A stretch of DNA of 64,000 nt from a bacterium (GCA_965203885.1 OZ241920.1:3073476-3137475), one strand, 5' to 3'; positions 5,716-59,775 are shown, counted from the stretch's first letter. Program-made: numbers and translations. Notes: generated by a model from the letters alone, not told the origin.

Positions 5716-5753
5716 GCCTTACCGCCGGTGCAGGTCCACCGCCTGACGGGCCC

Positions 5754-7199: not shown

Positions 7200-7339
7200 T
7201 TTTTTCGCAGGTTTTGTATTTAATCTCCGACTGGTACTATATTGACAGTGCATTTGAATGAATGTATTGGTCGAATATCGCCATAGGACCTTCATCGGGC
7301 CGCCCGTACAAATCCCCTTTCAATTCCTGGAACCGAAAA

Positions 7340-7510
7340 CATGTCTACGAGCAACAACAAGAAAGCGCAGATAAAGGTTCACAGCACCGTATTCGGCGTA
7401 CAGCGTATAGACAGAAACGAGTTCACCAGAAGCAAGAAGGCCATGGACACCATCCGTAAATTCATGGAACGTGATCACAAGTTTCAGAAACGAGCGCACG
7501 GAAAGTGAGT
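7340..7510 (+). CDS. small basic hypothetical protein (56 aa), low-GC
   Basis: ATG at 7340, stop TGA 7508-7510, 3 bp before the next ATG (7513); below the ORF-track size cutoff; translation MSTSNNKKAQIKVHSTVFGVQRIDRNEFTRSKKAMDTIRKFMERDHKFQKRAHGK. Confidence 0.25.
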
Positions 7511-7512
7511 AG

Positions 7513-8253: not shown

Positions 8254-8292
8254 GTAAGCGAATCTGTAATTACCCTGATTTCGTATACGGAA

Positions 8293-9216: not shown

Positions 9217-9291
9217 AGGGAACGGTTGAAGGGAACGACTGAAGGCACCGGTTTGATACACCAGTCGTGTCCTTCGTTCATGGCGCGGCAA

Positions 9292-9362
9292 CAGACCGGG
9301 CAGACCGTACTGACCCAGCAGACCGGGCAGACCGGGCAGACCATACAGACCGTATAGACCGT
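9292..9362. repeat. 9-bp microsatellite (cagaccggg-like unit x ~8, imperfect) in GT2-yfhO intergenic region
   Basis: Read directly: cagaccggg cagaccgta ctgacccag cagaccggg cagaccggg cagaccata cagaccgta tagaccgtt. Confidence 0.85.
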
Positions 9363-9374
9363 TAAAGGGCATTC

Positions 9375-11870
9375 ATGGCGAAGAAACAACCACATACGCG
9401 ACCCGATCGGCGCAGAACCGGCGGAGCGGACAGAACCCGCGGCTCGGCCAGGGACCGGCGGGAACGCTCGGCGCGCACGGAACGCACGGCACGAACCTTG
9501 CATCCGTACGTCCAGGATGCCTTGTTCTGCCTGGTGATCGCGGTGTTGGCCATCTTCGTTTACCGCGGCTATATCATCGAAGGCAAGATGGACATCCGGC
9601 CAGATTTCATTGGCCAGGCCATTCCCTTCGACCGCTTCGCGCAGGACTTCGCAAGCCGGTCCGGCGAAACGCCCCTCTGGTACCCCCACATCTTCGGCGG
9701 CATGCCCTTCCAGGCCAGCGGCACCTATCACCATCTGCAGTACAGCTTCGAAGCCCTGGTCAACGCCGTCCTGCCGGACGGGCTCATCGGCGCGCTGCAC
9801 GGCCGCTTCTTCTTCCACCTGCTCCTCGGCGCGGTCTCCATGTTCTTCCTGGCGCGGGCCCTGTCGCTCTCGCGGCCCGCGTCTTTCGTCGCCGCGGCGG
9901 CCTTCGTGTTCTCCACCCACATGATGGCCACGGAACACGCGAACCGGTTCATCTGCTTCATGCACGTCCCCCTCGTCTTCCTGGCCGCCTACCGCGTATT
10001 CGATCGCGGCAGGGTGTTCGACATGGTATTGCTCGGCGGCGCCTTCGGCTCGCAGTTGTGTTCCTTTCATCCCCAGATCGCCTTCTACACGGCCATGCTG
10101 ATCGGCCTGTACGCCGCGTACGCCGTGATCAACGACCTGCGGGACCGGGCGCCCGCCGGCATCATGCTGAGGAAATCCGGTCTTTTCGCGGGCGGAATCG
10201 TCCTGGCCCTGGCCGTCGCGGCGGTGCTCGTGCTGCCCATGCAGGAATACGCGCAGTATTCCGTCCGGGGCCTCTCCGTCGGCGGCAGCGGCGTCAACGC
10301 CCCCTTCGCCACGAGCTGGTCGTTCCCGCCCATCGAAGTGCTGACCTTCCTCATCCCATCCTTCGCCGGGTTCGGCGGGCTCTTCTACTGGGGGGACATG
10401 CCCTTCACGGACTTTCCCAACTACCTGGGCGTCGTCGTTTTCGTGCTGGCGGTATCGGGCGTAATCCTTCGCCCTTCGCGCATGACCGCCTTCCTCGTCC
10501 TGGCGGCCGCGCTGGCGCTCCTGGTCTCCTTCGGGCGGCACCTGCCCCCCGTATCCTACGTCATGCTCCACTTCGTCCCCTTCTTCGCCAAGTTCCGCGC
10601 GCCGGTCATGATCCTGGTGATCGTGCAGTTCGCGGCCGCCCTGCTGGCGGGATACGGCGTGCACGCGCTGATCGAACGGATCCGCGCGGGCCGGGACAGT
10701 CTGAGGCGCTTCGCGACGCGGCTGTGCTGCGTGGCCGGCGGGGTGCTCCTGCTGGTCCTGGTCCTGACCGTGTTCGAGTCCTCCTTCCAGTCCTTCATGA
10801 CGGGCGTCTACGTACAGGCGGACGCGGCCCACGGTTCGCGCGCGGGCCTCCTGGACAACGCGGATTACCACGCCCGGCTCAACGCCATGCGTTTCGGCCT
10901 GCTCATGGCCGACCTGTGGCTCATGACGCTGTTCCTCTGCGCGGCGGCCGCGCTGCTCTTCGCCACCCGCAAGGCGGGCCCGGCGCTGTTTGCCGCCGGC
11001 GTGAGCGCACTCCTCGCCGTCGACCTGCTGCTCGTGGCCTCGCGGGTCGTGAACCCCGAAGACGATCCCGCGCGGATCCAGGCCCATTACGCCGCCCGCG
11101 AAAACGAGATCGTGAAGGCCCTGGAGGAAGACACCGGCCTGTACCGCATCCTCCCGCTGTCCGAGTTCTCGTCCAACGAGTACGGATACTTCGGCATCTC
11201 CAGCATCGGCGGCTACCACGCCGCCAAACTCGGTATCTACCAGGAACTCATGGACCGGGTGGGGTTCAGCTCCTTTCCGGTTTTGAACATGCTCAATACC
11301 CGTTACCTTGTGTCCCGGCAGCCTCTACCGGAATCCGGGCTCTCGCCCGTGGCCGAGTCCGACGGCGGATACCTCTACCGGAACGACGCCGCGCTGCCGC
11401 GGGCCTTCCTGGTGGACAGCGTGCAAGTCGTCGCCGGGAAGGACGCCGTCTTCGAAGCGTTGAACGAGCCCGGGTTCGAACCCGGCGAGTACGCGATCCT
11501 GGAGCAGCCCGTCCGGGAGGCGTTGGGGCCGCTGGGCGAATCCTCCGTGGAGATCACGGCGCACACGCCCCATCGCATCGAGGTGGCGGTGGAGGCCGAC
11601 GCGCCGGGCCTGCTGGTGCTCAGCGAGATCTACTATCCGGCCGGGTGGAGCGCCACGATCGACGGCGAGCCCGCCGAGATATACAAGACCAACTACGTGC
11701 TGCGCTCCGTGGCCGTCCCGGCGGGCCGTCATGAAGTCGTCATGACCTTTGCCCCGTCGAGCTTTGCCACGGGACTCCTCGTGAGCCGGATCGCCGGCAC
11801 GCTGGTCCTGGCCGGGTTGATCGCCGCGGGCGCGATGCGCATCAGAAAGCGCCTGAAGGCCGGGGCCTGA
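9375..11870 (+). CDS. yfhO: YfhO family membrane glycosyltransferase (GT-C fold)
   Basis: 831 aa; many N-terminal TM helices (e.g. 'LWYPHIFGGMPFQASGTYHHL', 'FFLARALSL'), large C-terminal extracytoplasmic domain ending in a TM anchor; adjacent GtrB-like GT2 reproduces the known CsbB-YfhO / GtrB-GT-C pairing. Confidence 0.75.
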   Translation: MAKKQPHTRPDRRRTGGADRTRGSARDRRERSARTERTARTLHPYVQDALFCLVIAVLAIFVYRGYIIEGKMDIRPDFIGQAIPFDRFAQDFASRSGETPLWYPHIFGGMPFQASGTYHHLQYSFEALVNAVLPDGLIGALHGRFFFHLLLGAVSMFFLARALSLSRPASFVAAAAFVFSTHMMATEHANRFICFMHVPLVFLAAYRVFDRGRVFDMVLLGGAFGSQLCSFHPQIAFYTAMLIGLYAAYAVINDLRDRAPAGIMLRKSGLFAGGIVLALAVAAVLVLPMQEYAQYSVRGLSVGGSGVNAPFATSWSFPPIEVLTFLIPSFAGFGGLFYWGDMPFTDFPNYLGVVVFVLAVSGVILRPSRMTAFLVLAAALALLVSFGRHLPPVSYVMLHFVPFFAKFRAPVMILVIVQFAAALLAGYGVHALIERIRAGRDSLRRFATRLCCVAGGVLLLVLVLTVFESSFQSFMTGVYVQADAAHGSRAGLLDNADYHARLNAMRFGLLMADLWLMTLFLCAAAALLFATRKAGPALFAAGVSALLAVDLLLVASRVVNPEDDPARIQAHYAARENEIVKALEEDTGLYRILPLSEFSSNEYGYFGISSIGGYHAAKLGIYQELMDRVGFSSFPVLNMLNTRYLVSRQPLPESGLSPVAESDGGYLYRNDAALPRAFLVDSVQVVAGKDAVFEALNEPGFEPGEYAILEQPVREALGPLGESSVEITAHTPHRIEVAVEADAPGLLVLSEIYYPAGWSATIDGEPAEIYKTNYVLRSVAVPAGRHEVVMTFAPSSFATGLLVSRIAGTLVLAGLIAAGAMRIRKRLKAGA

Positions 11871-11948
11871 CAACGTAGACGCCGGACGCCGAAACCGCCT
11901 GAAGGCCGCGGCCTGACGCGAAGACAACTGACACCAAAGACGCAAACC

Positions 11949-12662
11949 ATGAAACCGCTGATCATCATCCCCACCTACAACGAACTGGAGAACATCCGGC
12001 GCCTGCTGCCCGAGCTGATGGCGCTGGATCCGGATATACGCGTGCTCGTGGTGGACGACAACTCGCCGGACGGGACGGGGAAGCTGGCCGACGAGCTGGC
12101 CGCGGGGAACGAGCGGATCAGCGTCCTCCACCGGCCCGGCAAGCTCGGCCTTGGATCGGCTTACGTGGCGGGTTTCAGGTACGCGGTCCGGCAGGACGTG
12201 GACTGCGTCTTCGAGATGGACGCGGACTTCTCCCACGACCCCGCCATGATACCCAGGTTCCTGGAGGAGATCGCGTCCTGCGACGTGGTGATCGGGTCCC
12301 GGTACGTCAGCGGCATCAACGTGGTGAACTGGCCCATGTCCCGGCTGCTGCTCAGCTATTTCGCCAACATCTACACCCGCCTGGTCACGGGCATGACGAT
12401 CCGGGACGCCACCTCGGGATACAAGTGCTTCCGCCGCGAAGTGCTGGAGAACATCGCGCTGGACGACGTCCGGTCCGACGGGTACGCCTTCCAGATCGAG
12501 ATGAATTTCAGGTGCTGGCGAAAGGGGTATCGCCTGCGTGAAATCCCCATTATCTTCGTAGACCGGCGTTCGGGCACGTCGAAACTATCCCGGGGCGTGA
12601 TCAGCGAGGCGGTCTGGATCCCCTGGTGGCTGCGCCTGCAGCGCCTGCTGCGCCGCATGTAG
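11949..12662 (+). CDS. polyprenyl-phosphate sugar synthase, GtrB/CsbB/Dpm1-like GT2
   Basis: 'IIIPTYNELENI...VLVVDDNSPDGTG' and 'EMDADFSHDP' (DxD / Dpm1 signature); soluble ~237 aa. Confidence 0.85.
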   Translation: MKPLIIIPTYNELENIRRLLPELMALDPDIRVLVVDDNSPDGTGKLADELAAGNERISVLHRPGKLGLGSAYVAGFRYAVRQDVDCVFEMDADFSHDPAMIPRFLEEIASCDVVIGSRYVSGINVVNWPMSRLLLSYFANIYTRLVTGMTIRDATSGYKCFRREVLENIALDDVRSDGYAFQIEMNFRCWRKGYRLREIPIIFVDRRSGTSKLSRGVISEAVWIPWWLRLQRLLRRM

Positions 12663-23822: not shown

Positions 23823-24434
23823 TCAGTCGACGCTCGATCGGTATGGAGATCCATGCGTGCGGCCGCCTTCGCCTGCGCCTCCACCGCTTCCACCTGCGCC
23901 TGCGCCGCTTCCGCCTGCGCCGCTTCCGCCTGCGCCGCTTCCGCCTGCGCCGCTTCCGCCTGTGCCTGCGCCGCTACCGCCTCGATCGCTTCCGCCTGCG
24001 CCGCTTCCGCCTGCGCCTGTGCCTGTGCCTGTGCCGCTACCGCCTGCGCCTGCGCCTGTGCCAGTGCCGCTACCGCCTGCGCCGCTTCCGCCTGTGCCGC
24101 TCTCGCGGCCGTCGCCGCCGTACTCTTCCGCCATGGACGAATTCCCGTGGAAGACCGCCCCTTCCTCGATGACGAGGGACTTGGTCTTCAGGTCGCCGAC
24201 CAGGGTGGACTTGCCGCCCAGGAGCACGTGTTGCGATACGGTCAGGTGGCTCTCCACGTAGCCGTGGATGACCGCGGTCTTGGACGATATCGCCGATCCC
24301 ACGATCCGGCCGGACTTGCCGACCTCGACCCCTTCGGTGGCTCTCACGTCGCCGATCACGGTGCCGTCGACCCGGATATTGCCCTCCACGTCCATCGAAC
24401 CGTTCACTTCAGCGCCTTTGGCAATGATCGTCAT
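23823..24434 (-). CDS. bactofilin (DUF583) cytoskeletal protein with long Gly/Ser/Ala/Thr-rich C-terminal tail
   Basis: Core 'GSMDVEGNIRVDGTVIGDVRATEGVEVGKSGRIVGSAISSKTAVIHGYVESHLTV...GDLKTKSLVIEEGAVFHGN' is a typical bactofilin beta-helix; tail encoded by GGSGAGG-type repeats (23860-24120). Confidence 0.8.
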   Translation of the reverse strand: MTIIAKGAEVNGSMDVEGNIRVDGTVIGDVRATEGVEVGKSGRIVGSAISSKTAVIHGYVESHLTVSQHVLLGGKSTLVGDLKTKSLVIEEGAVFHGNSSMAEEYGGDGRESGTGGSGAGGSGTGTGAGAGGSGTGTGTGAGGSGAGGSDRGGSGAGTGGSGAGGSGAGGSGAGGSGAGAGGSGGGAGEGGRTHGSPYRSSVD

Positions 24435-41041: not shown

Positions 41042-41193
41042 GGTCCCGCGCTTCATCTCAGCGGCTCCGCGTCTCTTCTGGTCCCGCGCTTCGTCTCAGC
41101 GGCTCCGCGTCTCATCTGGACCCGCGCTTCCTCTCAACGGCTCCGCGTCTCTTCTGGTTCCCCGCTTCGTCTCAACGGCTCCGCGTCTCCTCA
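41042..41193. repeat. 38-bp direct tandem repeat x4 (ggtcccgcgcttcgtctcagcggctccgcgtctc(t/a)tct-like)
   Basis: Four units starting at 41042, 41080, 41118, 41156 read directly; no unique spacers between units. Confidence 0.9.
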
Positions 41194-42515
41194 GGTTCCA
41201 GCTCGCACAAAATCTCCAGGGCCTCGCCCACCAGCGCGAAACATCCGGTCACGAGGACCAGGTCGTCCGGTTGCGCCAGGGCCTTCGCCTCCGCGACGGC
41301 TTCCGCGACGGACGGCGCCGTCCGCGACGGCGTTCCAAGCGCCGCGCAGGCCGCCGCCACTTCCGCGGGACCGGCCTGCCGGCTTCTGAGTACCCGCCGC
41401 TCGGGGACGAGGATCTCGTCGGCGTATTGCGCGATGACCCGGCACAACGCGCCCACCGCCTTGTCGCGGTGCGCGGACAACACGACGATGACGCGGCGGG
41501 CCGGGAAGAGCCGGCGCAGGCTGGCCGTCAGGTTCTCCGCCGCCAGCACGTTGTGAGCGACGTCCAGTACCAGCCAGGGGCCGCTCCGGATCAGCTGCAT
41601 GCGTCCCGGCAACCGTACCGTCGAGAGGCCGCGGCGTACCCCATCGGCCGTTATTTCCATGCCCCGCTTCGCCAGGGCCTCCGCCACGCCCACGGCCACG
41701 GCCGCGTTGCCGGCCTGAAAAGCGCCGGACAGCGGGAGCGTGACCCCTTCGTACGACCCGCCGGCCGTCTCGATATCCACCACCTGCCGGCCCACCGCTT
41801 CTTCCCGGAGGGCGTACCGCACGTCGACGCCCGCCTCCACGAGGGGGCTCGACCGGAGCCGGCAGGCCTCCCGGATCACTTCCGATGCCTGCGGCGGCTG
41901 GGCGGCGGAAACGGTGCAGGCGCCTTCCTTTACGATCCCGGCTTTCTCGCGGGCGATCTCCGCAATCGTCTCGCCGAGGCGGTCCGTGTGGTCCAGCCCT
42001 ATGGGCGTAATCGCGCAGGCCATCGGCTGGATCACGTTGGTCGAATCCAGCCGCCCGCCGAGACCGCACTCGACCACCGCCAGGTCCACCCGGCGTTCCT
42101 TAAAATACACAAAGGCCAGGGCCGTGAGTATATCAAAAAACGAACCCATGCCCTCCGGCCGCAGCCGGGTTCCTTCGATGGCCGGACGCGCGCGTTCGGT
42201 CAGTCCGGCGAACGCGCGTTCGGTGATGGGCTCGCCGTCGACCTGGATGCGTTCGCGCAGCGACACCAGGTGGGGCGACGTGTACAGGCCCACGCGGTAG
42301 CCGCTTTCGCGGAGGATGGACGCGATCATGACGGCGGTGGACCCCTTCCCCTTGGTCCCCGCCACGTGTACCGATTTCCAATGCCGTTCGGGATGGCCGA
42401 GGGCTTCCGTCAGCGCGGAAATGCCCGCCAGGTCCATGCGTTCCGGCGCGGCGCCCGGCATCTTTTCGAAATCCACGAAGTCGTAGAGATAGTCCAGCGC
42501 CTCTTTGAAGGTCAT
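41172..42515 (-). CDS. folC: bifunctional folylpolyglutamate synthase / dihydrofolate synthase
   Basis: 'HVAGTKGKGST' Mur-ligase P-loop, 'TSPHL', FolC length. Confidence 0.88.
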   Translation of the reverse strand: MTFKEALDYLYDFVDFEKMPGAAPERMDLAGISALTEALGHPERHWKSVHVAGTKGKGSTAVMIASILRESGYRVGLYTSPHLVSLRERIQVDGEPITERAFAGLTERARPAIEGTRLRPEGMGSFFDILTALAFVYFKERRVDLAVVECGLGGRLDSTNVIQPMACAITPIGLDHTDRLGETIAEIAREKAGIVKEGACTVSAAQPPQASEVIREACRLRSSPLVEAGVDVRYALREEAVGRQVVDIETAGGSYEGVTLPLSGAFQAGNAAVAVGVAEALAKRGMEITADGVRRGLSTVRLPGRMQLIRSGPWLVLDVAHNVLAAENLTASLRRLFPARRVIVVLSAHRDKAVGALCRVIAQYADEILVPERRVLRSRQAGPAEVAAACAALGTPSRTAPSVAEAVAEAKALAQPDDLVLVTGCFALVGEALEILCELEPEETRSR

Positions 42516-42519: not shown

Positions 42520-43737
42520 TCATCCCGTACCCGTCAGGGTCTTCGCATACTCGAAGGGGCGCGACACCGCCCTGCGTCGCAACGCGCCGAATCGCCTCCG
42601 CGCCGGGGCGGAAACGTCCGCGCTGTCGGCGATGCGCTTGAACACGTTCCTGCCGGGGCGGGCGTTGACTTCGATGATCCAGGGCGTGCCGCCGGCGTCC
42701 GGCACGATATCGAGTCCCACCTCCCCGATGGGCCCGAGTTCCGCCTCCATCCGTCCCCATGCCGCGAAGGACGCCTCCGCCGCGTCGCGCAGGACCTTCT
42801 CGCGGGCGGACCGGCCGTACAGCGCGTCGAGCACGGGTTCCGCCTCTTCGGAACGGGCGCCGTTGCTCAGGTTGGACGTTGGGCCGCCCGTCTGGCTGAC
42901 GCGGGCCGCCAGGCCGGTCAGGATACACTTCGAACGGCCGTTCTTCTGCATCAGCAACCGCAGGTCGAACCGCGGGAAACGCCTCCGGCCCGGGGGTTCG
43001 GCCGCGATCCCCTGCTGCACCAGGCAGTCGGGGGATCCCGCGGCGCCCTGTCCCGCCAGCTCCATGATCCGGTCCCTCGCCGGCCGCGCGCCGCGTATCT
43101 CGTAGGTCGCGGCCAGCGTCCGTATGACGTGGCGTCCGTCCCCGTACCGGACGACCTCGATGACGCCCGTGCCCTGGGACCCCGCCCTCGGCTTGATGTA
43201 CACGTGATCGTAGCGGAACAGAAAGGCCCGCAGCGACTGCTCGTCGAGCAGGGCGGTCCGCGGCACGGGGAGGCCGCCGCCGGCCAGGCGCCGGTACGTC
43301 TCCAGCTTGTCCGCCGCCAGTCGGATGAAGGTGAGGGGGTTCACGAAGGAGATACCGGCCCGGTCGAACAGGTCCCGCGCCCGCTCCGCCGCGACGGATC
43401 CGGCCGGATCGACCACGGGCGCGCGGTCGTAGATGACCGCCGGAAAGGGCTCGCGGCCGCATTCGACCCACCTGCCGTCCACGACCGTGGCCGGCTTTAC
43501 CGTGCCCTGCCCGGGGTCCACGTCCGTCGCGTCGAACACCACCGCGCGCAGGCCGAGCTTCGCCGCGGCCTGGCAGCACTCCGCGAAAAACCCCGTGGGC
43601 GGGCCGAAGGGACGGCCTGCCTCGTCGGGCGCGCGGCGGCTCAGGATGCCCACGGTCGCCACGGCCGGCTTCAGGATGCCCACGGTCGCCACGGCCGGCT
43701 TCCGGTCCCGCGTGTTCGCGGTTTCCTTCGTCTTCAT
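42520..43737 (-). CDS. YheC/YheD family ATP-grasp protein (RimK/tubulin-tyrosine-ligase-like ligase)
   Basis: 'VGIL' N-terminal motif duplicated (KPAVATVGIL x2, from a 27-bp direct repeat); 'DHVYIKPRAGSQGTGV', 'LDIVPDAGGTPWIIEVNARPG' ATP-grasp C-terminal region. Confidence 0.6.
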   Translation of the reverse strand: MKTKETANTRDRKPAVATVGILKPAVATVGILSRRAPDEAGRPFGPPTGFFAECCQAAAKLGLRAVVFDATDVDPGQGTVKPATVVDGRWVECGREPFPAVIYDRAPVVDPAGSVAAERARDLFDRAGISFVNPLTFIRLAADKLETYRRLAGGGLPVPRTALLDEQSLRAFLFRYDHVYIKPRAGSQGTGVIEVVRYGDGRHVIRTLAATYEIRGARPARDRIMELAGQGAAGSPDCLVQQGIAAEPPGRRRFPRFDLRLLMQKNGRSKCILTGLAARVSQTGGPTSNLSNGARSEEAEPVLDALYGRSAREKVLRDAAEASFAAWGRMEAELGPIGEVGLDIVPDAGGTPWIIEVNARPGRNVFKRIADSADVSAPARRRFGALRRRAVSRPFEYAKTLTGTG

Positions 43738-43740: not shown

Positions 43741-44823
43741 CTAAGCGGACCGGGTGGGACGGACCGCACGGACCGCACGGACCGCATGGACCGGACGGGC
43801 CATCCGTTTCACTTCGTCCAGTGTCGACCAGGTCATGTCGCCCCGTTCCGAAAAGGACAGGGCGGACAGCGCGGTGCCGTAGGAGAGTCCGGCGGGGAGA
43901 TCCTCCCGCAGCAGGCCGTACAGCAGGCCGGCGTCGAAGGCGTCCCCGGCGCCGAGGCGGTCGACCGGTTCCACCGCGTAGGGCTTCGTGTAGAGGAAGC
44001 CCGTCTCCGCGGACCAGCCCACGGCCCCGCCTTCGGCCAGCGTAAGCACGACGATCCCGTTCCCGAACCGGCCGTGAAAGGCTTCGATCGTCGCCTCCGG
44101 CGCGCCGTCCCATCCGAAGATCAACGCCGCGTCGGCGGCGGTCGACACCAGGACGTCGACCTGGCCCAGCAGGGATTCCAGGACCTCGCGGGCCCGTTCC
44201 TGCGTCCACAGCTTGGCCCGGTAGTTGATGTCGAACGACGTCCGGTACCCGCCCTCCGCCCGGCCGCCGAGGACCCGGGCGACGGTCTCGAGGCACGACG
44301 GGCCCAGGGACGCCGTGATGCCGGAGGTATGCACGATCCGGGCGCCGGACCGCAGCGCCCTTTCCACCACCTCGGGCGTCATTCCGGTCGCGGCGGAACC
44401 GGCGCGGTCGTAGACGACCCGGCTGCCTCTCGGCGGCGTGCCGGGTTCGAGAAAGAATACGCCGGCCCGACTGGGCCGACTGGGCCGCTCGCGCTGCTCC
44501 TGCTGATCGGGCCGCTCGGGCCGACTGGCCCGAGCGGGCTGCTCCGGCTGCTCAGCCCGCCCGGCCCGCCCATCAACCCAGGCCACGTGGGACGTGTCCA
44601 CGCCGTGGAGGGCCAGGCGGGAGGCGATCCAACGCCCGGCGGGATGATCGGGGAGGGCGGAGACCCAGGCCACGCCGGCGCCCATCCTGGCCAGGGCCGC
44701 CGCCATGTTGGACTCCGTGCCCGCCGCGTCGGCCCGCAGGTAATCGGCCTGTTCCAGCATCTCGCCGTCCACCGGCGAAAACCGGATCATCGTCTCGCCG
44801 AACGTAACGACATCGTAACGCAT
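43741..44823 (-). CDS. PfkB family carbohydrate kinase (2-keto-3-deoxygluconate kinase-like) with internal low-complexity insertion
   Basis: Start 'MRYDVVTFGETMIRF' (cat at 44821-44823); 'LGAGDAFDAGLLYGLL' PfkB signature 2; insert 'PEQPARASRPERPDQQEQRERPSRPSR'; upstream in-frame Met codons of ORF 43741-44994 are unlikely starts. Confidence 0.75.
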   Translation of the reverse strand: MRYDVVTFGETMIRFSPVDGEMLEQADYLRADAAGTESNMAAALARMGAGVAWVSALPDHPAGRWIASRLALHGVDTSHVAWVDGRAGRAEQPEQPARASRPERPDQQEQRERPSRPSRAGVFFLEPGTPPRGSRVVYDRAGSAATGMTPEVVERALRSGARIVHTSGITASLGPSCLETVARVLGGRAEGGYRTSFDINYRAKLWTQERAREVLESLLGQVDVLVSTAADAALIFGWDGAPEATIEAFHGRFGNGIVVLTLAEGGAVGWSAETGFLYTKPYAVEPVDRLGAGDAFDAGLLYGLLREDLPAGLSYGTALSALSFSERGDMTWSTLDEVKRMARPVHAVRAVRAVRPTRSA

Positions 44824-44885: not shown

Positions 44886-45854
44886 TCAGGCGTAATGACA
44901 GGCCACCCAGTGGCCGCTTTCGTTCTGTTTGAGTTCCGGCTCGTGCACGGCGCAGTCGTCCTTCGCGATGGGGCAGCGTGGATGAAAACGGCAACCGGAG
45001 GGCGGGTCGACCGGACTGGGCACGTCGCCCGTGAGTTGAATGCGCTGTTTCTGGCGCCGCTTGCTGATCTCCGGGACGGCGGACAGCAGGCTCTGCGTAT
45101 AGGGGTGCTGGGCGTTGTTCGTCACCTCGTCGGTCCGCCCCGCCTCGATGAGCTTGCCCAGGTACATGACCCCGATGCGGTCGCTGATGTGGGCGACGAC
45201 GGCCAGGTTGTGGGCGATGAACATGTAGGTCAGGTTCAACTCGTCCTGCAGGTCCTGGAGCAGGTTCAGGATCTGGACCTGGATGGACACGTCCAGGGCG
45301 GACACGGGCTCGTCGCAGATGATGAGGCTCGGGTTCAGCGCGATGGCCCGGGCGATGCCGATACGCTGGCGCTGGCCGCCGCTGAACTCGTGGGGATAGC
45401 GGTCCACGTAGGCTTCGCTCAGTCCGACCATCTCGAGCAGGCTGACCAGCCTCGCCCTTCGTTCTTCCCGTCTGCCCACGCGATGGATGTCGAGGGGCTC
45501 CTGCACGATGTTCCCCACCGTCATGCGCGGGTCCAGGGAGGCGTAGGGGTCCTGGAAGATCATCTGAAGCCGCTTGCGGACGGGCTTCAGCTCGTCTTCG
45601 GACATGTCCGCCAGGTCGTTGCTCTCGAAGAGGACCCTCCCCGCCGTGGGCCGGTAGAGCTGCAGGACCGTCAGGCCGAGGGTGGACTTTCCGCAGCCGC
45701 TTTCTCCCACCAGCCCGAAGGTCTCGCCCCGGTCGATGGAAAAGGAAACGCCGTCCAGCGCCCGCACGGTACCGCCTTCTTCCTTGCGGCCCAGCCCTTC
45801 TTCCAGTTCGAAGTGCTTTACCAGGTTATCCAGTTGCAGCAGGGGCTCGTTCAA
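44886..45854 (-). CDS. ABC transporter ATP-binding protein, OppF/DppF type
   Basis: 'GESGCGKST', 'LSGGQRQR', C-terminal oligopeptide-type Cys-rich extension. Confidence 0.88.
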   Translation of the reverse strand: MNEPLLQLDNLVKHFELEEGLGRKEEGGTVRALDGVSFSIDRGETFGLVGESGCGKSTLGLTVLQLYRPTAGRVLFESNDLADMSEDELKPVRKRLQMIFQDPYASLDPRMTVGNIVQEPLDIHRVGRREERRARLVSLLEMVGLSEAYVDRYPHEFSGGQRQRIGIARAIALNPSLIICDEPVSALDVSIQVQILNLLQDLQDELNLTYMFIAHNLAVVAHISDRIGVMYLGKLIEAGRTDEVTNNAQHPYTQSLLSAVPEISKRRQKQRIQLTGDVPSPVDPPSGCRFHPRCPIAKDDCAVHEPELKQNESGHWVACHYA

Positions 45855-45875
45855 CGCGTCCTCCGGGATGGCATG

Positions 45876-45950
45876 CGGCCGGCGTCGGTGCGGCCGGCGT
45901 CGGTGCGACCGGCGTCGGTGCGGCCGGCGTCAGTACAGCCGGCGTCAGTA
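45876..45950. repeat. 15-bp tandem repeat x5 (gcggccggcgtcggt then acagccggcgtcagt variants) between the two ABC ATPase genes
   Basis: Read directly at 45876-45950. Confidence 0.85.
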
Positions 45951-46925
45951 CAGCCAGCAGGCGCAGTCGTGTTCCCGCGCCACGTCCTTCAGTTCCGGGT
46001 CGTCCCCGCACAGGTCGAAACGGCTGGGGCACCGCGGCGCGAACCGGCAGCCGGCGGGCAGCTGGATCAGGTTCGGCGGCACGCCGTCGATGGGTTCCAT
46101 GCGTTCCTTCACCGTCGGGCCGAGCTTGGGCACGGACTGGAGCAGGCCGTGCGTGTAAGGGTGCTTCGGGTCGTCGAGCAGCGTGTCCACCGGGCCCGAT
46201 TCGATGATCCGGCCGGCGTACATGACGATCACCCGGTCGCACACCTCGCCCACGACCCCGAGATCGTGGGTGATGATGACGACCGACATGTTCAGTTCTT
46301 CCTGGAGCTTCATCATCAGTTCCAGGATCTGCGCCTGGATGGTCACGTCCAGCGCCGTGGTCGGCTCGTCGGCGATGAGCAGCTTGGGGTTGCACGCGAT
46401 GGCCATGGCGATCATCACGCGCTGCCTCATCCCCCCGCTGAACTGGTGGGGGTAGTCGTTGAGGCGCTGCTCCGGGCTCGGGATGTTGACCATCTGCAGC
46501 AGTTCGATGCTGCGGTCCGTCGCCTCCTTCTTGTCGAGGCCGAGATGGAGCTGGAGGGGCTCCCGAAGCTGCCATCCGATGGTCAGTACCGGGTTGAGGG
46601 ACGTCATCGGGTCCTGGAACACCATGGAGACGATATTGCCCCGGATCTCCTGCATTTCGGGTTCAGAGACGGTCCGCAGGTCGACCGCGGGCTGGTCGGC
46701 GCCGGGCCGGAACAGGATGTTGCCGTTGACGATGCGGCCCGGGGGACTCGGGATGAGCCGCATGATGGAAAGCACCGTGGCGCTCTTGCCGCATCCGCTC
46801 TCCCCCACGATGCCCACCGTTTCCCCTTCCGCCACGTCGAAACTGACGTCGTCCACGGCCCGCACCGCGCCGCCGCGGGTGAGGAAGTGGGTCGAAAGGT
46901 TCTCAACCTTCAGTAAGGGTTCCAT
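45945..46925 (-). CDS. ABC transporter ATP-binding protein, OppD/DppD type
   Basis: '[10 protein letters not shown]', 'FSGGMRQR', oligopeptide-type C-terminal extension. Confidence 0.88.
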
Positions 46926-46952
46926 GGGTCCATGCTTCCCGTCATTACGCGC

Positions 46953-49040
46953 TCAGTCTTCTTCCAGGGCCTTGGCTTCTTCGATGACCTTGTTCTCGAT
47001 TTCCTTGGGCATTTCCTCGTAGCGGACGAATTTGCGCGCGTGGCTGCCGCGGCCGTGGGTAATGGACCGCAGCACGGTCGAGTACCGGTACAGTTCGGCC
47101 AGCGGCACTTCGGCCCGCACCACCTGGTTGCTGCCCCGGGGGGACATGCCCAGGATGCGGCCGCGCCGGCTGGAAAGATCGCCCATGACGTCGCCCATGT
47201 AGTCCTCGGGGACGACCACGTCCACTTCGTAGATCGGCTCGAGCAGGACGGGGCGGGCTTCCATGAAGGCCTTCTTGAACCCCATGGACGCGGCGACCTT
47301 GAAGGCCATTTCGGATGAATCGACCGTGTGGAACGAACCATCGTACAGCGTGGCCTTCAGGTCGACCACGGGATACTTGGCCATCACGCCCTCCACCATG
47401 GCCTCCTGGATGCCCTTGTCCACCGCCGGGATGAACCGGCTGGGGACGGCGCCGCCCACGATGCCGTTGTCGAATTCGTATCCTTCGCCGCGCTGCCTGG
47501 GTTCCACGCGCAGCCAGACGTCGCCGAACTGCCCGCGTCCCCCGCTCTGCCGCTTGAACCGGCCCTGGGCCTCGGACCGGCCCTTGATCGCCTCGCGGTA
47601 GGGGATGCGCGGCTGCACCATCTCGACTTCCACGCCGAAACGGCGGCTGAGCCGCTCCACGATGAGGTCCAGGTGCATTTCCCCGGCGCCGGCCAGGATC
47701 AGTTGCCTGATCTCGCTGTTGTACCGGAAGGTAAAGGAAGGATCCTCTTCGTGCAACCGGGACAGGCCGGTGCTGATCTTCTCCTCGTCGTCCTTGCTCT
47801 TCGGCAGGATGGCCACGTTCGCCACGGGCTCGGAGAATTCCACCCAGGCCACGTCGAAGGCTTTCTGCCGGATGCACAGTCCGTCGCCGGTGTGGGTGTC
47901 CTTCAGTTTAACGGTCGCCCCGATCTCGCCGGCGCGGATGGCGTTCAGCTCATGCCGCTCGTGGCCGTTGGTCTGGTAGATCTGCCCGAACCGTTCCGAC
48001 GTGTTCTTGGACGAGTTGTACACGTCGCCGCCGTGCTTGATCTCGCCGGAGAACACCCGGAAATAGGTGAGTTCCCCGATGTGGGCCTCGGAGACCGTCT
48101 TGAATACCAGGGCGGCCAGGGGGCCGGACGGGTCCGGATCGAGGGCGACTTCCTCGCCGTCGCCCGAGCGGGTGACCGTCACCGGCGGGCGGTCCGCCGG
48201 AGAGACCATGAACGCGGCCGCCGCGTCCATCACGCCGGAGACCCCGACGTTTGCCGAGGCGCAGGTCGCCAGGACGGGGAAGACGGCGCCTTCCCGCACG
48301 CCTTTGCGCAACCCCTCCAGGAGCTGCTCGTCGGTGAGCGCGCCTTCTTCGAAGTAGACCTCGAGCAGTTCGTCGTCGGATTCCGCCACCGATTCCACGA
48401 GCTTTTCGCGGTATTCGTCCGCCTGGCCGGAGACCTCGCCGGGGATCGCCGACCGGGTCCCCTTGCCGTCGCCGCCCGCGAAGGTCACCGCTTCCATGGC
48501 GACCAGGTCGACGACGCCGGAGAAGCCCTCGCCTTCGCCGATCGGGATCTGGACCGGGACGGCCTGCGTGCCGAACCGTTCCTGGATGCGGCCGAGCGCG
48601 TCGTAGAAGTCGGCGTGCTCCTTGTCCAGCTGATTGATGACCACCATGCGGGGCAGGCCGTACTGTTCCGCGTACTCCCAGGCGCGCTCCGTCTCCACCT
48701 CGATGCCTTCGATGGCCTTGACCACGACGGCCACGTTGTCCGTGACGCGCATCGCGCAGTGGACCTCGCTGGTGAAATCGGAATAGCCCGGCGTGTCGAG
48801 GATATGGAGGTTGTGGTCGTTCCACTCGCAGTGCAGCGGCGTGAGGTTCATGGAAATGCGGTGTTCGATCTCTTCCTCGCGGTAGTCCGATACCGTGTTG
48901 CCGTCCTCCACGCTCCCGAGCCGGGTCGTGGCGCCGGCGTTGAAGAGCATGGCTTCCGCCAGGGAGGTCTTGCCGCTTCCCCCGTGGCCCGCAAGGCAGA
49001 TATTCCTTATTTTTTCGATGTTGTATTCCTTCACGAACAC
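46953..49040 (-). CDS. elongation factor G paralogue (EF-G II-like translational GTPase) with non-canonical G1 motif
   Basis: Five-domain EF-G architecture (695 aa); G1 reads 'AGHGGSGKTS' instead of canonical 'AHIDAGKTT'; 'DTPGYSDF' G3; 27 bp upstream of the OppD-like gene. Confidence 0.85.
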   Translation of the reverse strand: MFVKEYNIEKIRNICLAGHGGSGKTSLAEAMLFNAGATTRLGSVEDGNTVSDYREEEIEHRISMNLTPLHCEWNDHNLHILDTPGYSDFTSEVHCAMRVTDNVAVVVKAIEGIEVETERAWEYAEQYGLPRMVVINQLDKEHADFYDALGRIQERFGTQAVPVQIPIGEGEGFSGVVDLVAMEAVTFAGGDGKGTRSAIPGEVSGQADEYREKLVESVAESDDELLEVYFEEGALTDEQLLEGLRKGVREGAVFPVLATCASANVGVSGVMDAAAAFMVSPADRPPVTVTRSGDGEEVALDPDPSGPLAALVFKTVSEAHIGELTYFRVFSGEIKHGGDVYNSSKNTSERFGQIYQTNGHERHELNAIRAGEIGATVKLKDTHTGDGLCIRQKAFDVAWVEFSEPVANVAILPKSKDDEEKISTGLSRLHEEDPSFTFRYNSEIRQLILAGAGEMHLDLIVERLSRRFGVEVEMVQPRIPYREAIKGRSEAQGRFKRQSGGRGQFGDVWLRVEPRQRGEGYEFDNGIVGGAVPSRFIPAVDKGIQEAMVEGVMAKYPVVDLKATLYDGSFHTVDSSEMAFKVAASMGFKKAFMEARPVLLEPIYEVDVVVPEDYMGDVMGDLSSRRGRILGMSPRGSNQVVRAEVPLAELYRYSTVLRSITHGRGSHARKFVRYEEMPKEIENKVIEEAKALEED

Positions 49041-49330
49041 CCCTCCTCTTCGGGACTCCGACCGGCCACCGCGATTCAGGTTCTTTTCGTTTTGCAGGAC
49101 TTCCGGGAAAAATCCTAATATGACTGTGTACGCGTCCCGCTGTCAAGTTTTTCGGGCCGGCCGTCCGCCCCGACGGGAGCGCCGCCGCGAAAGGCGCCTG
49201 GACAGGACCGGAACACGGCGCGGAGGAGGCCGGGCCCGGACCGCGGCGCCTGCTTCAGCGGATGGCGCCTGGACAGGACCGGTGCCTGGAACGAAAGCGC
49301 CCTTCAGCACATAAGCGCCTGGACCGCAGC

Positions 49331-49370
49331 CAAAAAAGAAAAGGCGCCCGAAATGAATCGAGCGCCTTTC
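49331..49370 (-). terminator. rho-independent terminator of the rRNA operon (after 5S)
   Basis: On the minus strand: GC-rich stem (aaaggcgctcga / tcgggcgccttt) with 6-nt loop followed by a U-rich run (ttttcttttttgg) immediately 3' of the 5S rRNA. Confidence 0.75.
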
Positions 49371-49375
49371 CGGCA

Positions 49376-49495
49376 TCCCCCGGCAGCGTCCTACTCTCCC
49401 ACAAGGTCACCCAAGCAGTACCATCGGCGCAAGAGGGCTTAACTACTCTGTTCGGAATGGGAAGAGGTGTTTCCCCTCCGCTATCGCCACCGGAA
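49376..49495 (-). rRNA. rrf: 5S ribosomal RNA
   Basis: Reverse complement aligns to bacterial 5S (e.g. 'ggcagcgtcctactctccc', 'accatcggcgc'); boundaries +/-5 nt. Confidence 0.9.
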
Positions 49496-57870: not shown

Positions 57871-59775
57871 TTGATCTTGCGCGAGGCTCCAATGACAACC
57901 ACCACACACGACGACACGTATAGCATCCTGCAATGCCTGCAGGGAAACGCCAACGCCTTCGAATCCTTGGTCCGGCGGTATCAGAACGCCGCTTTCGCCG
58001 TGGCGCTGGGCTACCTCCGGGACCGTACGGACGCCGAGGACGTTGTGCAGGATGCTTTTGTCGCGGCCTTCTGCAAGCTGTCGCAACTGAAAGATCCGGC
58101 CGTTTTCGGCAACTGGTTTCACCGTATCGTAGTCAACCGTTGCAAGGAGTGGAGCCGTCGTAACAAGGCGGGTCGTCTGAGCCGAGTCGATCCGGATGCT
58201 GAACACATTCGCGACGAATTCCCCCAAGCGGACCGTATGCATCGGGAATACATCGAGTGTCTAGAGCTATGGGATGAAGTCGAAAAGCTACCCGAACATT
58301 ACCGCCAGGTCGTCACGCTGTACTATTACACCGGTTTTTCACTGAAAGAAATCGCCACGTTTCTCGACATTCCCGAATCCACGGCGAGAGGGCGGCTGTA
58401 TCAATCCCGAATCCGACTGAGAAACGCGTTATCGCCCCAGGAGAAGGAGACCATCGCCATGAGTCAGATCGATGTCACTGAAGATGTCCAGGATGTGGTC
58501 TGCAAGATCGCTAGGGAGGACTTTAAAGAAAAGACCGATATGGGTGACGTGGAAAACATCGTCCTCTATTGCGGCGTCAGCACGGAAGTCGAGATAAAAC
58601 AGGCCGAAGGAGATCAGGTCGTAATCGAAGGCTCGAAGATCGCGTTGGGTCTGACGGAGGACGAAGCGCGAAGTAACCTCAGTGGGTTTCATGTTTCTCA
58701 TGACCAGGTCGACGATTACATGGAAACGGGTCCGCACGACGGAGCGTTGTTTCTCAGCGCCAAGCACTGGTTTCCTGATAACGTCCCGTACACCGAACCT
58801 ATCAGCAAGTACTGGAAACGCGATCTGAAGAACGAAAGCGTACTCGACGATAAGCGGGGCGGTGTCAGAATGGTCGACGCCTTACCGGATTCGAAGCATG
58901 AAATCAATGCGTTCCTGCCGTTGCCGGGACCTGCGGAGAAAGGCCTGGGGAAGTCGATACGGGTCACGGTTCACGCTTCGGATGCGCGACCCATCAGAAT
59001 GACCAGAGATGCCGTGTCAGACAACGTCGAGCGTATATTCCGGTCCATGCAGTCCGATAACACCAGGCTATACGGACCCGCGACGTACTGCCATCTTTCG
59101 GTCGCTGTTCCCGCCGGCGCGAACATCTCGATTTTCAGGTCGGACAAGGTGAATGTCGATGGCCTGGATGGTTCACTGATGGCTTATTCCTGCTCTTCTT
59201 GCAGGGTAAGCGAGATAACGGGGGACGTTTACCTGTTCAACAGCATGTTTTCGGATATAGGAAGCGTGGGCGGCTCGTTGTACCAGCGCATGTACGGGTA
59301 CGGCGGCGATGGAGGCTGCAGCATGGACGGCAACATGCTGCGACGAATTCCCTATCAGCACGAAGGAAAGATCGAAGCGGTCATGGGCGACGTGGATATC
59401 GACGTCGGATGCATGGACTTGAACGCGCTCGACCTCGAGGGCGATATCGCCATTTACAACCGATATGGCAGAACCCGGGTGGCTCAGAGTGGCTACAACA
59501 AAGGGCAGCGGTGCTATGTCCGAAGTGTTTCCGGCGACGTTGACCTGGTCCTGGACAGGAAAAGGGCGAAAGACGTCCGCCTGGTCATGCATACCGTTTG
59601 CGGTGTGGCGAAGTACGGGGAGTTGAAAAAGTTAATGCCCATCATATCATGGGCACACAACGAATACTGGATGACGCTGGCATCAACGTACGACTTCGCA
59701 AATCCAGACATCACGGTCTTAACGGAAAGCGGCACCGTCGACATCATCGTGGCGAAGAACGGCAAGCACAGTTGA
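57871..59775 (+). CDS. ECF-type sigma-70 factor (regions 2 and 4) fused to a ~440-aa C-terminal domain with Toastrack/DUF4097-like 'GDVD(I/L)' repeats; no transmembrane segment evident
   Basis: N-terminal 'ESLVRRYQNAAFAVALGYLRDRTDAEDVVQDAFVAAFCKL' (sigma r2) and 'LPEHYRQVVTLYYYTGFSLKEIATFLDIPESTARGRLYQSRIRL' (r4 HTH). C-terminal 'SGDVDLVL', 'GDVDIDVG', 'GDVYLFN', 'SGTVDIIV' beta-helix-like repeats and Cys-rich segment (SCSSC, GGCSMDG, GCMD). Lower GC than genome. Confidence 0.7.
   Translation: MILREAPMTTTTHDDTYSILQCLQGNANAFESLVRRYQNAAFAVALGYLRDRTDAEDVVQDAFVAAFCKLSQLKDPAVFGNWFHRIVVNRCKEWSRRNKAGRLSRVDPDAEHIRDEFPQADRMHREYIECLELWDEVEKLPEHYRQVVTLYYYTGFSLKEIATFLDIPESTARGRLYQSRIRLRNALSPQEKETIAMSQIDVTEDVQDVVCKIAREDFKEKTDMGDVENIVLYCGVSTEVEIKQAEGDQVVIEGSKIALGLTEDEARSNLSGFHVSHDQVDDYMETGPHDGALFLSAKHWFPDNVPYTEPISKYWKRDLKNESVLDDKRGGVRMVDALPDSKHEINAFLPLPGPAEKGLGKSIRVTVHASDARPIRMTRDAVSDNVERIFRSMQSDNTRLYGPATYCHLSVAVPAGANISIFRSDKVNVDGLDGSLMAYSCSSCRVSEITGDVYLFNSMFSDIGSVGGSLYQRMYGYGGDGGCSMDGNMLRRIPYQHEGKIEAVMGDVDIDVGCMDLNALDLEGDIAIYNRYGRTRVAQSGYNKGQRCYVRSVSGDVDLVLDRKRAKDVRLVMHTVCGVAKYGELKKLMPIISWAHNEYWMTLASTYDFANPDITVLTESGTVDIIVAKNGKHS

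Follow-up and report, generated by a model that had tools for sequence, protein, structure and literature searches.

Organization of the locus

The window (the whole 64-kb stretch of DNA that was analysed) carries on its minus strand an rrn operon and its terminator, the gene for a paralogue of elongation factor G (EF-G2), a 27-bp gap, oppD-like and oppF-like genes, and genes for a PfkB kinase, an ATP-grasp protein and FolC, the last of these closing a tightly packed co-directional run. The features are listed here in the direction of transcription, with coordinates counted from the first nucleotide of the window.

54560-49378, minus strand: rrn operon, 16S-tRNAIle-tRNAAla-23S-5S (LSU and SSU matches, two tRNAs)
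49378..49494, minus strand: 5S rRNA, final gene of the rrn operon (Rfam RF00001, 108.9 bits)
49328..49371, minus strand: intrinsic rrn terminator with a stem of 14 bp and a T-run behind it (terminator scan and inverted repeat)
49187..49330, no strand: degenerate short-repeat array with a period of ~33-38 nt (~35), comprising exact 19-mers and partial copies (repeat analysis)
49117..49146, minus strand: putative σ70-type promoter of the EF-G2 gene, TTGACA-N18-CATATT (10/12 consensus matches)
49035..49112, minus strand: EF-G2 leader, ~75 nt long, which includes a GGAGG Shine-Dalgarno box (fold and Rfam scan)
46953..49034, minus strand: EF-G2 (EFG II subfamily) paralogue, 693 aa (motifs, domains, NCBIfam, tree)
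45945..46925, minus strand: OppD/DppD-type ABC nucleotide-binding subunit, 326 aa (ABC_tran and oligo_HPY domains, motifs)
45874..45946, no strand: 15-bp tandem repeat (4.9 copies) filling the oppD-oppF spacer (TRF and sequence)
44886..45854, minus strand: OppF/DppF-type ABC nucleotide-binding subunit, 322 aa, initiating at TTG behind GGAGG (Pfam, NF008453)
43741..44823, minus strand: PfkB-family kinase, 2-dehydro-3-deoxygluconokinase-like (KDG-kinase-like), with an in-frame repeat insert
42520..43737, minus strand: YheC/D-type ATP-grasp protein (PF14398)
41172..42515, minus strand: FolC, folylpolyglutamate/dihydrofolate synthase (TIGR01499, 372.6 bits against a cut-off of 162.65 bits)

A preliminary description of this DNA had put an EF-G paralogue directly downstream of an rrn operon and 27 bp from an OppD-like gene, with an OppF-like gene, a sugar kinase and an ATP-grasp protein next in line and no permease or binding-protein genes nearby. 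That layout stands: the 5S gene (49494-49378) precedes EF-G2 on the minus strand, the gap to oppD is exactly 27 bp (46952-46926) and holds no terminator, and the neighbours are as described, with folC following. The ATP-grasp protein found no match in an NCBIfam search. Recycling of peptidoglycan peptides by oppDF together with a "Mur ligase" was considered and dropped, the ligase being FolC (TIGR01499). A hairpin and T-run equivalent to the rrn terminator lies 3' of the 5S gene in the related loci L003, L005, L007, L081, L083, L085 and L086.

An EFG II-type elongation factor

The EF-G2 open reading frame extends from a first GTG at 49040 to 46953 (695 codons), whence the 695 aa of the preliminary description, which hold for that alternative start. 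Translation most likely begins at the second GTG (49034), because GGAGG lies 7 nt upstream of it and because the exact 693-aa product is present in the public protein collection, from which the 695-aa version is absent. All five EF-G domains are found above the Pfam cut-offs (GTP_EFTU, EF-G_D2/GTP_EFTU_D2, EFG_III, EFG_IV and EFG_C), as expected of the full EF-G architecture that had been proposed, and the P-loop that had been read as AGHGGSGKTS is there in the translation (A-G-H-G-G-S-G-K-T-S-L). The G1 motif is thus GHGGSGKTSL; G2 is HRISM, aligned with RGITI and with Ser at the fourth position; G3 is DTPGY, with Tyr in place of the catalytic His of switch II; and G4 is NQLD, as against NKxD. 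The domain IV loops are intact (SGGRGQ and HTVDSSE).

Family models give a consistent placement. The protein scores 931.4 bits against NF009381 (PRK12740.1-5, an "elongation factor G" subfamily of the EF-G2-like PRK12740 group; cut-off 583 bits) in a match spanning positions 2-688 of 692. It also passes the canonical EF-G equivalog TIGR00484 (735 bits, cut-off 659), and despite that score it departs from canonical EF-G, to which it is ~45% identical, in its Tyr for His, its P-loop (GHGGSGKTS) and its G4 motif. It is related to the Bacteroides-type family NF058620 (EFG2_Bacteroid) without being a member (668.3 bits in two stretches, cut-off 1000), and it is not a tetracycline ribosomal protection protein of the Tet(M)/(O)/(Q) kind (NF012153, 286 bits, cut-off 775). 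Its G1-G4 motifs fit the consensus of 44 EFG II-type sequences and not that of 45 canonical ones (P-loops gHGgsGKTsL and AHIDAGKTTT, respectively), while its domain IV and V motifs are common to both sets. In an unbootstrapped neighbour-joining distance tree of these 89 sequences all 45 with AHIDAGKTT/DTPGH form one clade and EF-G2 falls among the 44 non-canonical ones. The catalytic His is missing in all of the best 120 database matches.

The EFG II subfamily was defined by Margus, Remm & Tenson 2011 (PMC3150367), its structural prototype being Thermus thermophilus EF-G-2 (PDB 1WDT/2DY1), by Gly16 where EFG I has Ala, by Leu25 and by relaxation of the G2 motif from RGITI to xxxSx. EF-G2 has all three, and like the rest of the subfamily it has the five-domain fold, a Leu after GKT[ST], no catalytic His in switch II, a gene context outside the str operon and a position apart from canonical EF-G. 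Judged by its sequence, then, the gene is a textbook EFG II/EF-G2 paralogue; motifs, tree, NF009381 and the published definition agree on what the preliminary description had called EF-G II-like. Since the divergent G1 motif matches the EFG II consensus, it is a family signature rather than a peculiarity of this gene. Compared with the Thermus and mycobacterial members EF-G2 is much less diverged: its G4 is of the NQLD/NLLD rather than the TKLD/NKxD kind, over its whole length it scores higher with Thermus EF-G (663 bits) than with Thermus EF-G-2 (1WDT; 477 bits), and, unlike that prototype, it clears the canonical TIGR00484 cut-off as well.

OppD and OppF

OppD and OppF, whose genes are separated by 90 bp, each consist of a single nucleotide-binding domain (PF00005, ABC_tran) with a C-terminal oligo_HPY domain (PF08352), and in the translations of both the Walker A, Q-loop, signature, Walker B and H-loop motifs are all intact. 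OppF passes NF008453 (416 bits, cut-off 408); the best family matches of OppD are to OppD/DppD, under the equivalog cut-offs. The partners of such subunits in a complete Opp/Dpp importer, two permeases and a family-5 binding protein encoded alongside the ATPases, are found neither in the window nor in related loci. Pfam scans of all sizeable ORFs turned up no BPD_transp_1 or SBP_bac_5 gene in the 64 kb, and tblastn with OppB, OppC and OppA queries detected no permease or binding-protein gene there or within ±10 kb in ten relatives, so that the flank around oppDF free of such genes measures at least 19 kb on one side and at least 44 kb on the other.

The nearest outgroup homologues of the two proteins, 64-67% identical, lie in complete oppDFBCA operons, which argues that these are normal transporter ATPases whose genes lie away from those of their permeases. 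(Used as a query of the protein database, OppB of the outgroup operon L090 returned Chloroflexota-type matches only.) Within the lineage they are the best-conserved proteins of their gene block: in L007 they are 76-78% identical to those of the window, as compared with 45-54% for the kinase, the ATP-grasp protein and FolC; across the lineage their identity is 76-99%, and all relatives have complete frames for them. As far as sequence can tell, they are the usual nucleotide-binding subunits of an ABC importer of the Opp/Dpp type, and the permeases that they drive would be encoded elsewhere in the genome. They share their domains and ATPase motifs with OppD/OppF (DppD/DppF) of the peptide/nickel-family importers, the difference lying in the absence of local permease and binding-protein genes.

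ABC ATPases that are encoded apart from the several permeases they serve have precedents in MsiK of Streptomyces and MsmK of streptococci and Bacillus, which are single, homodimeric subunits of the CUT1 sugar-importer family. OppDF resembles these in being stand-alone, strongly conserved ATPase genes in a housekeeping context, presumably serving distant permeases, and differs in being a heterodimeric pair of the Opp/Dpp type. The ABC ATPases that bind ribosomes, the ABC-F proteins (EttA, Uup, ARE-ABCF), have two nucleotide-binding domains that are joined by a linker within a single polypeptide. They too are permease-less, but OppD and OppF are single-domain proteins with the C-terminal domain of a transporter family, show nothing of the fused layout, and have no ABC-F family among the best 25 NCBIfam matches of either protein.

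Gene order in related genomes

The lineage to which the locus belongs is an uncultured one, represented by metagenome-assembled genomes of 3.5-3.9 Mb that are labelled Latescibacterota, Gemmatimonadota or Zixibacteria. Its block order is lipA, rrn operon, EF-G2, oppD, oppF, kdgK-like, ATP-grasp, folC, TPR-PPIase and trxB, and the ~20 kb from lipA to the TPR-PPIase gene are fully syntenic in L001-L007 and L083. EF-G2 lies directly behind the rrn operon in eight of 12 genomes. Direct adjacency of EF-G2 and oppD is confined to this one lineage, where it occurs in three branches (the group of the window, L083 and L007). In the sister lineages L081 and L085 six genes, a partner-switching set and MlaEFD, stand between EF-G2 and oppD; in a third, L086, OppD (P0177) is encoded on the same 20-kb contig as EF-G2 and more than 10 kb from it; L087 and L088, with EF-G2 proteins 56-58% identical, have no Opp genes near EF-G2. 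Beyond the lineage only one EFG II locus in 30 has Opp genes nearby: in L022 a complete oppBCDFA operon lies upstream of the EFG II gene. A general association of EFG II with Opp was considered on the strength of L022 and rejected, the arrangement being the single case in 30 and not kept in its closest relatives (L026, L029 and L061).

These comparisons bear on the proposal of the preliminary description that EF-G2 and the two permease-less ATPases make up a ribosome-associated or stress-translation module of their own; in that case the ATPases would have the ribosome or EF-G2 as their target, and not a transporter. The genes are co-directional across a 27-bp gap without a terminator, they adjoin one another throughout L001-L007 and L083, there is no permease gene within 64 kb, and OppDF is strongly conserved, all of which speaks for such a module. 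Nevertheless, we regard it as very unlikely. Six unrelated genes intervene in L081 and L085, the genes are far apart in L086, and there is no Opp gene by EF-G2 in L087 and L088; the one neighbouring case among the 30 EFG II loci of other lineages is a complete transporter operon, as are the surroundings of the nearest outgroup homologues; and the ATPases themselves are of the transporter type, with OppD/DppD/DppF as best matches. The flanking housekeeping genes, moreover, are just as syntenic. Because the whole block from lipA to TPR-PPIase is kept in the lineage, the linkage of EF-G2 to oppDF carries no specific signal: their juxtaposition follows from the presence or absence of the six-gene block and not from functional coupling. 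The preliminary description had itself named a standard fusA2 without conserved linkage to the ATPases as the case that would speak against its module, and that is essentially what these genomes present.

Promoter and leader

Downstream of the rrn terminator and of the repeats, EF-G2 would have its own σ70-type promoter; in each of the 11 related loci the gene is preceded by a conserved sequence CTTGACA-N17-19-TAnnnT. Of the dedicated promoter/operator that had been suggested for this spacer, the promoter part is thereby upheld (the operator part is taken up below). The leader folds less stably than shuffled sequences (z = +2.5), and an Rfam scan of it gave no significant match; a riboswitch or other leader element 5' of EF-G2 was rejected on these two counts. 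oppDF is probably co-transcribed with EF-G2 in the species studied, since the gap between them is only 27 bp and has no terminator.

EF-G2 and the ribosome

Two relatives suggest what a protein of this kind may do. According to PMC12078602 and PMC12172202, which cite Han et al. 2023, and to a 2026 bioRxiv preprint, the fusA2 product (EF-G2) of Bacteroides supports GTP-independent protein synthesis, and fusA2 is under the control of Cur and carbon limitation. The protein described here shares with EF-G2 of Bacteroides thetaiotaomicron its membership of the FCB superphylum, the sequences GSGKT[ST]L-EAMLF and NTVSDY, the lack of the catalytic His and an uncommon G4 motif, NQLD. By analogy it might be expected to act as a ribosome-bound translocase independent of GTP hydrolysis. 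It differs in the residue at the His position (Tyr, where the Bacteroides protein has Ser), in its length (693 rather than 718 aa) and in the surroundings of its gene, which lies behind an rrn operon and has a σ70 promoter of consensus type with no regulator site identified, as against control by Cur. The structures PDB 7uvp and 8dmf, though deposited as TetQ, are ones that we take to be of B. thetaiotaomicron EF-G2; the G-domain of the 718-aa EF-G2-like chain of 7uvp has NQLD, GSGKT[ST]L and NTVSDY in common with that of EF-G2.

The second relative is EF-G2 of Mycobacterium smegmatis (PDB 9K0Z/9K10), which has a natural Tyr at the same position, is reported to be without ribosome-dependent GTPase and has been assigned a role in stress; in mycobacterial EF-G1 the corresponding change, H88Y, nearly abolishes GTPase activity. 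The Tyr is common to the two EF-G2 proteins, whose match reaches no more than 471 bits and is split in two; in the mycobacterial protein the loops of domain IV are moved away from the tRNA, whereas the loops here have canonical sequences.

A further reading takes EF-G2 for the main or even the only EF-G of the lineage and not for a spare paralogue. It passes the TIGR00484 cut-off, the functional loops of its domains IV and V are intact, its gene is equipped with a perfect -35 box and a good Shine-Dalgarno box, the leader is unstructured, and the gene lies directly behind the rrn operon in two-thirds of the genomes (8/12). The canonical EF-G loci that a genome scan for the paralogue brought up all belong to other phyla. 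We nonetheless consider this highly improbable: Tyr has replaced the catalytic His, the very change that nearly inactivates the GTPase of mycobacterial EF-G1; in a survey of 303 genomes EFG II never occurred without another EFG (PMC3150367); and the gene lies outside the str-operon context. A related idea is that an EF-G2 with a degenerate GTPase serves as a translocase made constitutively and in large amounts, in the extreme case as the principal or sole one, rather than as a spare for starvation. High expression is conceivable because the gene is rrn-adjacent, its promoter fits the consensus, its Shine-Dalgarno box is strong and its leader lacks structure, although we give the idea as a whole very little chance of being right. 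Were it true, routine translation would be carried out by an EF-G without the catalytic histidine, and the co-transcribed orphan OppDF would belong to the same expression unit.

The repeats upstream of EF-G2

The spacer between the rrn terminator and the promoter contains two exact copies of a 19-mer, GGCGCCTGGACAGGACCGG, at 49193-49211 and 49264-49282, together with partial copies. The preliminary description had noticed the repeated motif correctly and placed it at 49188-49206 and 49263-49281, coordinates that do not hold. Its suggestion that the direct repeats are an operator, the binding site of a regulator of the EF-G2 promoter, has something to recommend it: two exact copies, where 0.13 would be expected, lie 71 nt apart, confined to this one spacer and 47-136 nt upstream of the -35 box. 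The suggestion is exceedingly improbable all the same. In searches beyond the window, no copy was found in any relative at up to three to four mismatches or in 1.46 Mb of loci at up to three, and the 19-mer is missing even from L001 (16S 99.55% identical) and from L003, in both of which the promoter is conserved; its lack in genomes of the same species counts against an operator. The copies belong, furthermore, to a degenerate ~35-nt array that merely stretches the terminator-to-promoter spacer from ~75 to ~185 nt, and ~35 comparable short tandem arrays occupy other spacers of the window. The 19-mers represent a repeat expansion that is local and strain-specific, such as the spacers of the host genome commonly contain, and not an operator.

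Interpretation

The reading that we favour, with a probability of roughly three in four, is that the locus displays the inherited housekeeping gene order of one uncultured lineage, in which a standard EF-G2, ordinary OppDF ATPases and strain-specific repeats happen to be neighbours. That oppDF might instead be the decaying leftovers of an opp operon stripped of its permease genes has next to no likelihood: the outgroup order is D-F-B-C-A and unrelated genes follow F here, but all catalytic motifs are intact, identity across the lineage exceeds that of neighbouring genes, and the frames are complete in every relative, with no frameshifts or relaxed selection seen.

On the favoured reading of an inherited gene order, the parts would work as follows. 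EF-G2 keeps the tRNA-mimicking tip of domain IV and the ribosome-binding domains, and its GTPase centre is degenerate (Gly and Leu at the EFG II-type positions of the P-loop, a Ser in G2, Tyr where the catalytic His would be, and NQLD instead of NKxD). By analogy with the proteins of Bacteroides, Mycobacterium and Thermus it may act on the ribosome as an alternative translocase or modulator of translation, slowly and with little or no hydrolysis of GTP, beside a canonical EF-G that would be encoded elsewhere. The consensus σ70-type promoter would drive its expression downstream of the rrn terminator, probably together with that of oppDF across the 27-bp gap, without any functional coupling of the products, and OppDF would energize permeases encoded elsewhere in the genome.

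The neighbourhood of EF-G2 and oppDF is thus not a new functional module, and EF-G2 belongs to a known family. As for the elongation factor, which public sources call plain "elongation factor G", a better label would be EF-G2 (EFG II-type, catalytic His -> Tyr), and, being only mildly diverged, it may offer a convenient comparison for work on translocation that is independent of GTP hydrolysis.

Gene layout

The window (63% G+C) holds a complete rRNA operon and, beyond a terminator and spacer, a closely spaced co-directional run of genes:

upstream of the rRNA operon: lipoyl synthase and peroxiredoxin
54560-53003, minus: 16S rRNA
between 16S and 23S, minus: tRNA-Ile and tRNA-Ala
52615-49548, minus: 23S rRNA
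49494-49378, minus: 5S rRNA
49371-49338, downstream of the rRNA operon: strong intrinsic terminator (14-bp stem and T-run)
49040-46953, minus: EF-G-like ORF, after the spacer 3' of the terminator
46925-45945, minus: OppD-like gene, 326 aa
45854-44886, minus: OppF-like gene, 322 aa
44823-43741, co-directional: PfkB kinase, KDG-kinase-like
43737-42520, co-directional: YheC/D ATP-grasp protein
42515-41172, co-directional: FolC (TIGR01499, 372 bits)
after FolC, co-directional: TPR-PPIase, then thioredoxin reductase
after thioredoxin reductase, opposite strand: serine acetyltransferase gene

The gap between the EF-G-like ORF and the OppD-like gene is exactly 27 bp, and the spacer between the OppD- and OppF-like genes is 90 bp. 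The preliminary description had these genes right as far as the ATP-grasp protein; its start of the EF-G-like gene and its positions for a repeated 19-mer in the spacer need correction. The second GTG, at 49034, is a likelier start than the upstream GTG because GGAGG lies 7 nt ahead of it and because the public protein collection contains precisely the 693-aa form and lacks the 695-aa one. Elsewhere in the window, 57871-59775 encodes a 634-aa protein whose N-terminal part is of the ECF sigma-factor type (regions 2 and 4) and whose long C-terminal extension matches no Pfam family; its gene adjoins that of a TonB_C protein.

EF-G2 is a member of the EFG II family

The EF-G-like protein (EF-G2) has all five EF-G domains. 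Its top NCBIfam model is NF009381 (PRK12740.1-5; 931 bits, cut-off 583), and it passes the canonical model TIGR00484 as well (735 bits, cut-off 659). In the same profile search it fails the Tet protection models and stays below the cut-off of the Bacteroides EF-G2 exception model (668 against 1000 bits). [quoted passage not shown] In an alignment with EF-G sequences taken from genomes, 44 of them non-canonical and 45 canonical, its G1 (GHGGSGKTSL), G2 (HRISM; canonical RGITI), G3 (DTPGY; canonical DTPGH) and G4 (NQLD; canonical NKMD) all agreed with the non-canonical consensus. The loops at the tip of domain IV (QSGGRGQFGD and GSFHTVDSSEMAFK), and likewise domain V, are conserved in both groups. 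The switch II residue is Tyr or Phe, and in no case His, among the best 120 database matches. An unbootstrapped distance tree places every canonical sequence in a single clade and EF-G2 in the other half. The string GHGGSGKTS also occurs in paralogues of Ignavibacteria, Thermodesulfobacteriota and Nitrospinales. Because motifs, switch II and tree all match EFG II, the divergent G1 motif is the family signature. The proposed EF-G II-like identity is thus borne out: EF-G2 is a further member of a known family, from an uncultured lineage. At G4 (48630-48641) the window protein and PDB 7uvp both read NQLD, and most of the close relatives described below read NLLD; the Lys of NKxD is not generally conserved in EFG II.

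OppD and OppF

OppD and OppF each have one ABC domain and an oligo_HPY C-terminal domain, with every ATPase motif intact; their top family matches are OppD/DppD and DppF/OppF, respectively, and OppF clears NF008453. As had been noted, no permease or binding-protein gene is nearby: Pfam searches of every sizeable ORF and tblastn with OppB/C/A queries from L022 (a Eubacteriales MAG locus, see below) found neither a BPD_transp_1 permease nor a family-5 binding protein in the 64-kb window, and tblastn with these queries found no OppB/C/A in the ±10-kb flanks of related loci. The closest OppD homologues beyond the lineage (64-67% identity) sit in complete oppD-F-B-C-A operons, from which we infer that OppD and OppF are bona fide importer ATPases whose partners would be encoded elsewhere. 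They are not relics, being the best conserved proteins of the block (76-78% identity in L007; 45-54% for the kinase, ATP-grasp protein and FolC).

Conservation of the gene order

A search through 185,579 species genomes yielded seven close relatives (L001-L007), 3.5-3.9-Mb MAGs labelled Latescibacterota, Gemmatimonadota or "bacterium", with EF-G2 identity of 70-92%; the 16S rRNA of L001 is 99.55% identical to the window's. The order EF-G2, OppD, OppF, PfkB, ATP-grasp, FolC, TPR-PPIase is kept in all seven, with LipA upstream in L001, L003 and L005, and L083 (69%) has the same layout. It is therefore the whole ~20-kb block that is syntenic, and not just the EF-G2-OppD pair. The ATP-grasp protein has no NCBIfam assignment; its gene invariably lies between the KDG-kinase-like gene and folC (L001-L007, L081, L085).

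In the sister loci L081 (74%) and L085 (66%), six genes separate EF-G2 from OppD: a GAF-SpoIIE phosphatase, an HATPase_c_2 kinase, a STAS protein, MlaE, MlaF and MlaD. In L086 (63%) the first three of these, the partner-switching genes, come after EF-G2, with unrelated genes beyond them; OppD (P0177) lies elsewhere on that 20-kb contig, at a distance of over 10 kb. In the more distant L087 and L088 (56-58%) a HIT protein gene follows EF-G2, and no Opp genes are near it. Among 30 EFG II loci from other lineages, L022 alone has Opp genes nearby, a complete oppB-C-D-F-A operon (3956-12064) directly upstream of its EFG II-type gene, which is unrelated to the window's. Since the closest relatives of that gene, L026, L029 and L061, lack such an arrangement, it is probably coincidence. 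The direct EF-G2-OppD linkage is thus limited to the lineage and follows from whether the six-gene block is present or absent.

EF-G2 comes straight after the 5S gene in the window, as it does in L003, L005, L007, L081, L083, L085 and L086. The rRNA adjacency is thus somewhat deeper than the Opp linkage, yet limited to the same lineage. Close relatives show this junction to be a hotspot of rearrangement: in L001 a ~1.4-kb insertion without rRNA (~8600-10000) separates 5S from the EF-G2 promoter, and in L002, L004 and L006 the 10-kb flanks contain no rRNA.

The suggestion that EF-G2 and OppDF form a ribosome-associated or stress-translation module finds no support, with whole-block synteny, adjacency lost in relatives and transporter-type homologues all speaking against it. 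The locus is an inherited housekeeping gene order of an uncultured lineage.

The spacer upstream of EF-G2

The dedicated promoter that had been proposed is well supported as a prediction: a σ70-type match, TTGACA-18-CATATT (49146-49117, minus; score 10/12), has an equivalent, CTTGACA-N17-19-TAnnnT, upstream of EF-G2 in all eleven related loci. The ~75-nt leader has no Rfam match and folds more weakly than its shuffles.

The 19-mer, taken earlier for an operator, is a real repeat (49193-49211 and 49264-49282), lying upstream of the -35 box within a degenerate array of ~35-nt period that stretches the terminator-to-promoter spacer from ~75 nt in relatives to ~185 nt. The motif occurs in none of the relatives, and a search allowing up to 3 mismatches found no further copy in 1.46 Mb of locus DNA. 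TRF finds ~35 comparable short GC-rich tandem arrays in the window, for example at 3296-3543, 9208-9362, 23863-24101 and 41042-41196; most of them occupy spacers or gene ends. The gap between oppD and oppF holds an array of 15 bp x 4.9 (45874-45946), one of 38 bp x 4.1 after folC extends across the folC/TPR-PPIase junction, and one within the PfkB kinase gene (44465-44569) encodes an in-frame low-complexity insert. The repeat is best read as a strain-specific expansion and not as an operator.

What EF-G2 may do

Thermus EF-G is the best solved-structure match over the whole length of EF-G2 (663 bits), ahead of Thermus EF-G-2 (477 bits). The G domain of the 718-aa 7uvp chain shares NQLD, GSGKT[ST]L-EAMLF and NTVSDY with EF-G2. 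That chain (7uvp/8dmf) bears the deposited name "Tetracycline resistance protein TetQ". Its motifs (GSSGSGKTTL, DCPGSDDF, NQLD) are of the EF-G2 type, and its length agrees with the 717 positions of the Bacteroides EF-G2 model and not with the 638 of the one for Tet(Q). From length and motifs it would be a Bacteroides-type EF-G2, its name, it seems, carried over from old annotation.

In mycobacterial EF-G1, H88Y nearly abolishes GTPase activity; Msm EF-G2, which acts under stress, naturally has Tyr at the equivalent position. Thermus EF-G-2 keeps translocation activity, and Bacteroides fusA2, as cited in PMC12078602 and PMC12172202, supports GTP-independent protein synthesis. By analogy with these characterised proteins, and because its domain IV loops are intact, EF-G2 would most likely be an alternative translocase or translation modulator with little or no GTP hydrolysis.

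A partner-switching set, absent from the window, directly follows EF-G2 in three sister loci (L081:5961-10783, L085:2962-7658, L086:2875-5050); its kinase is RsbW-like, and MlaE/MlaF/MlaD come next in two of the three. With a stress-signalling module as its neighbour in three lineages, EF-G2 may have a related use there.
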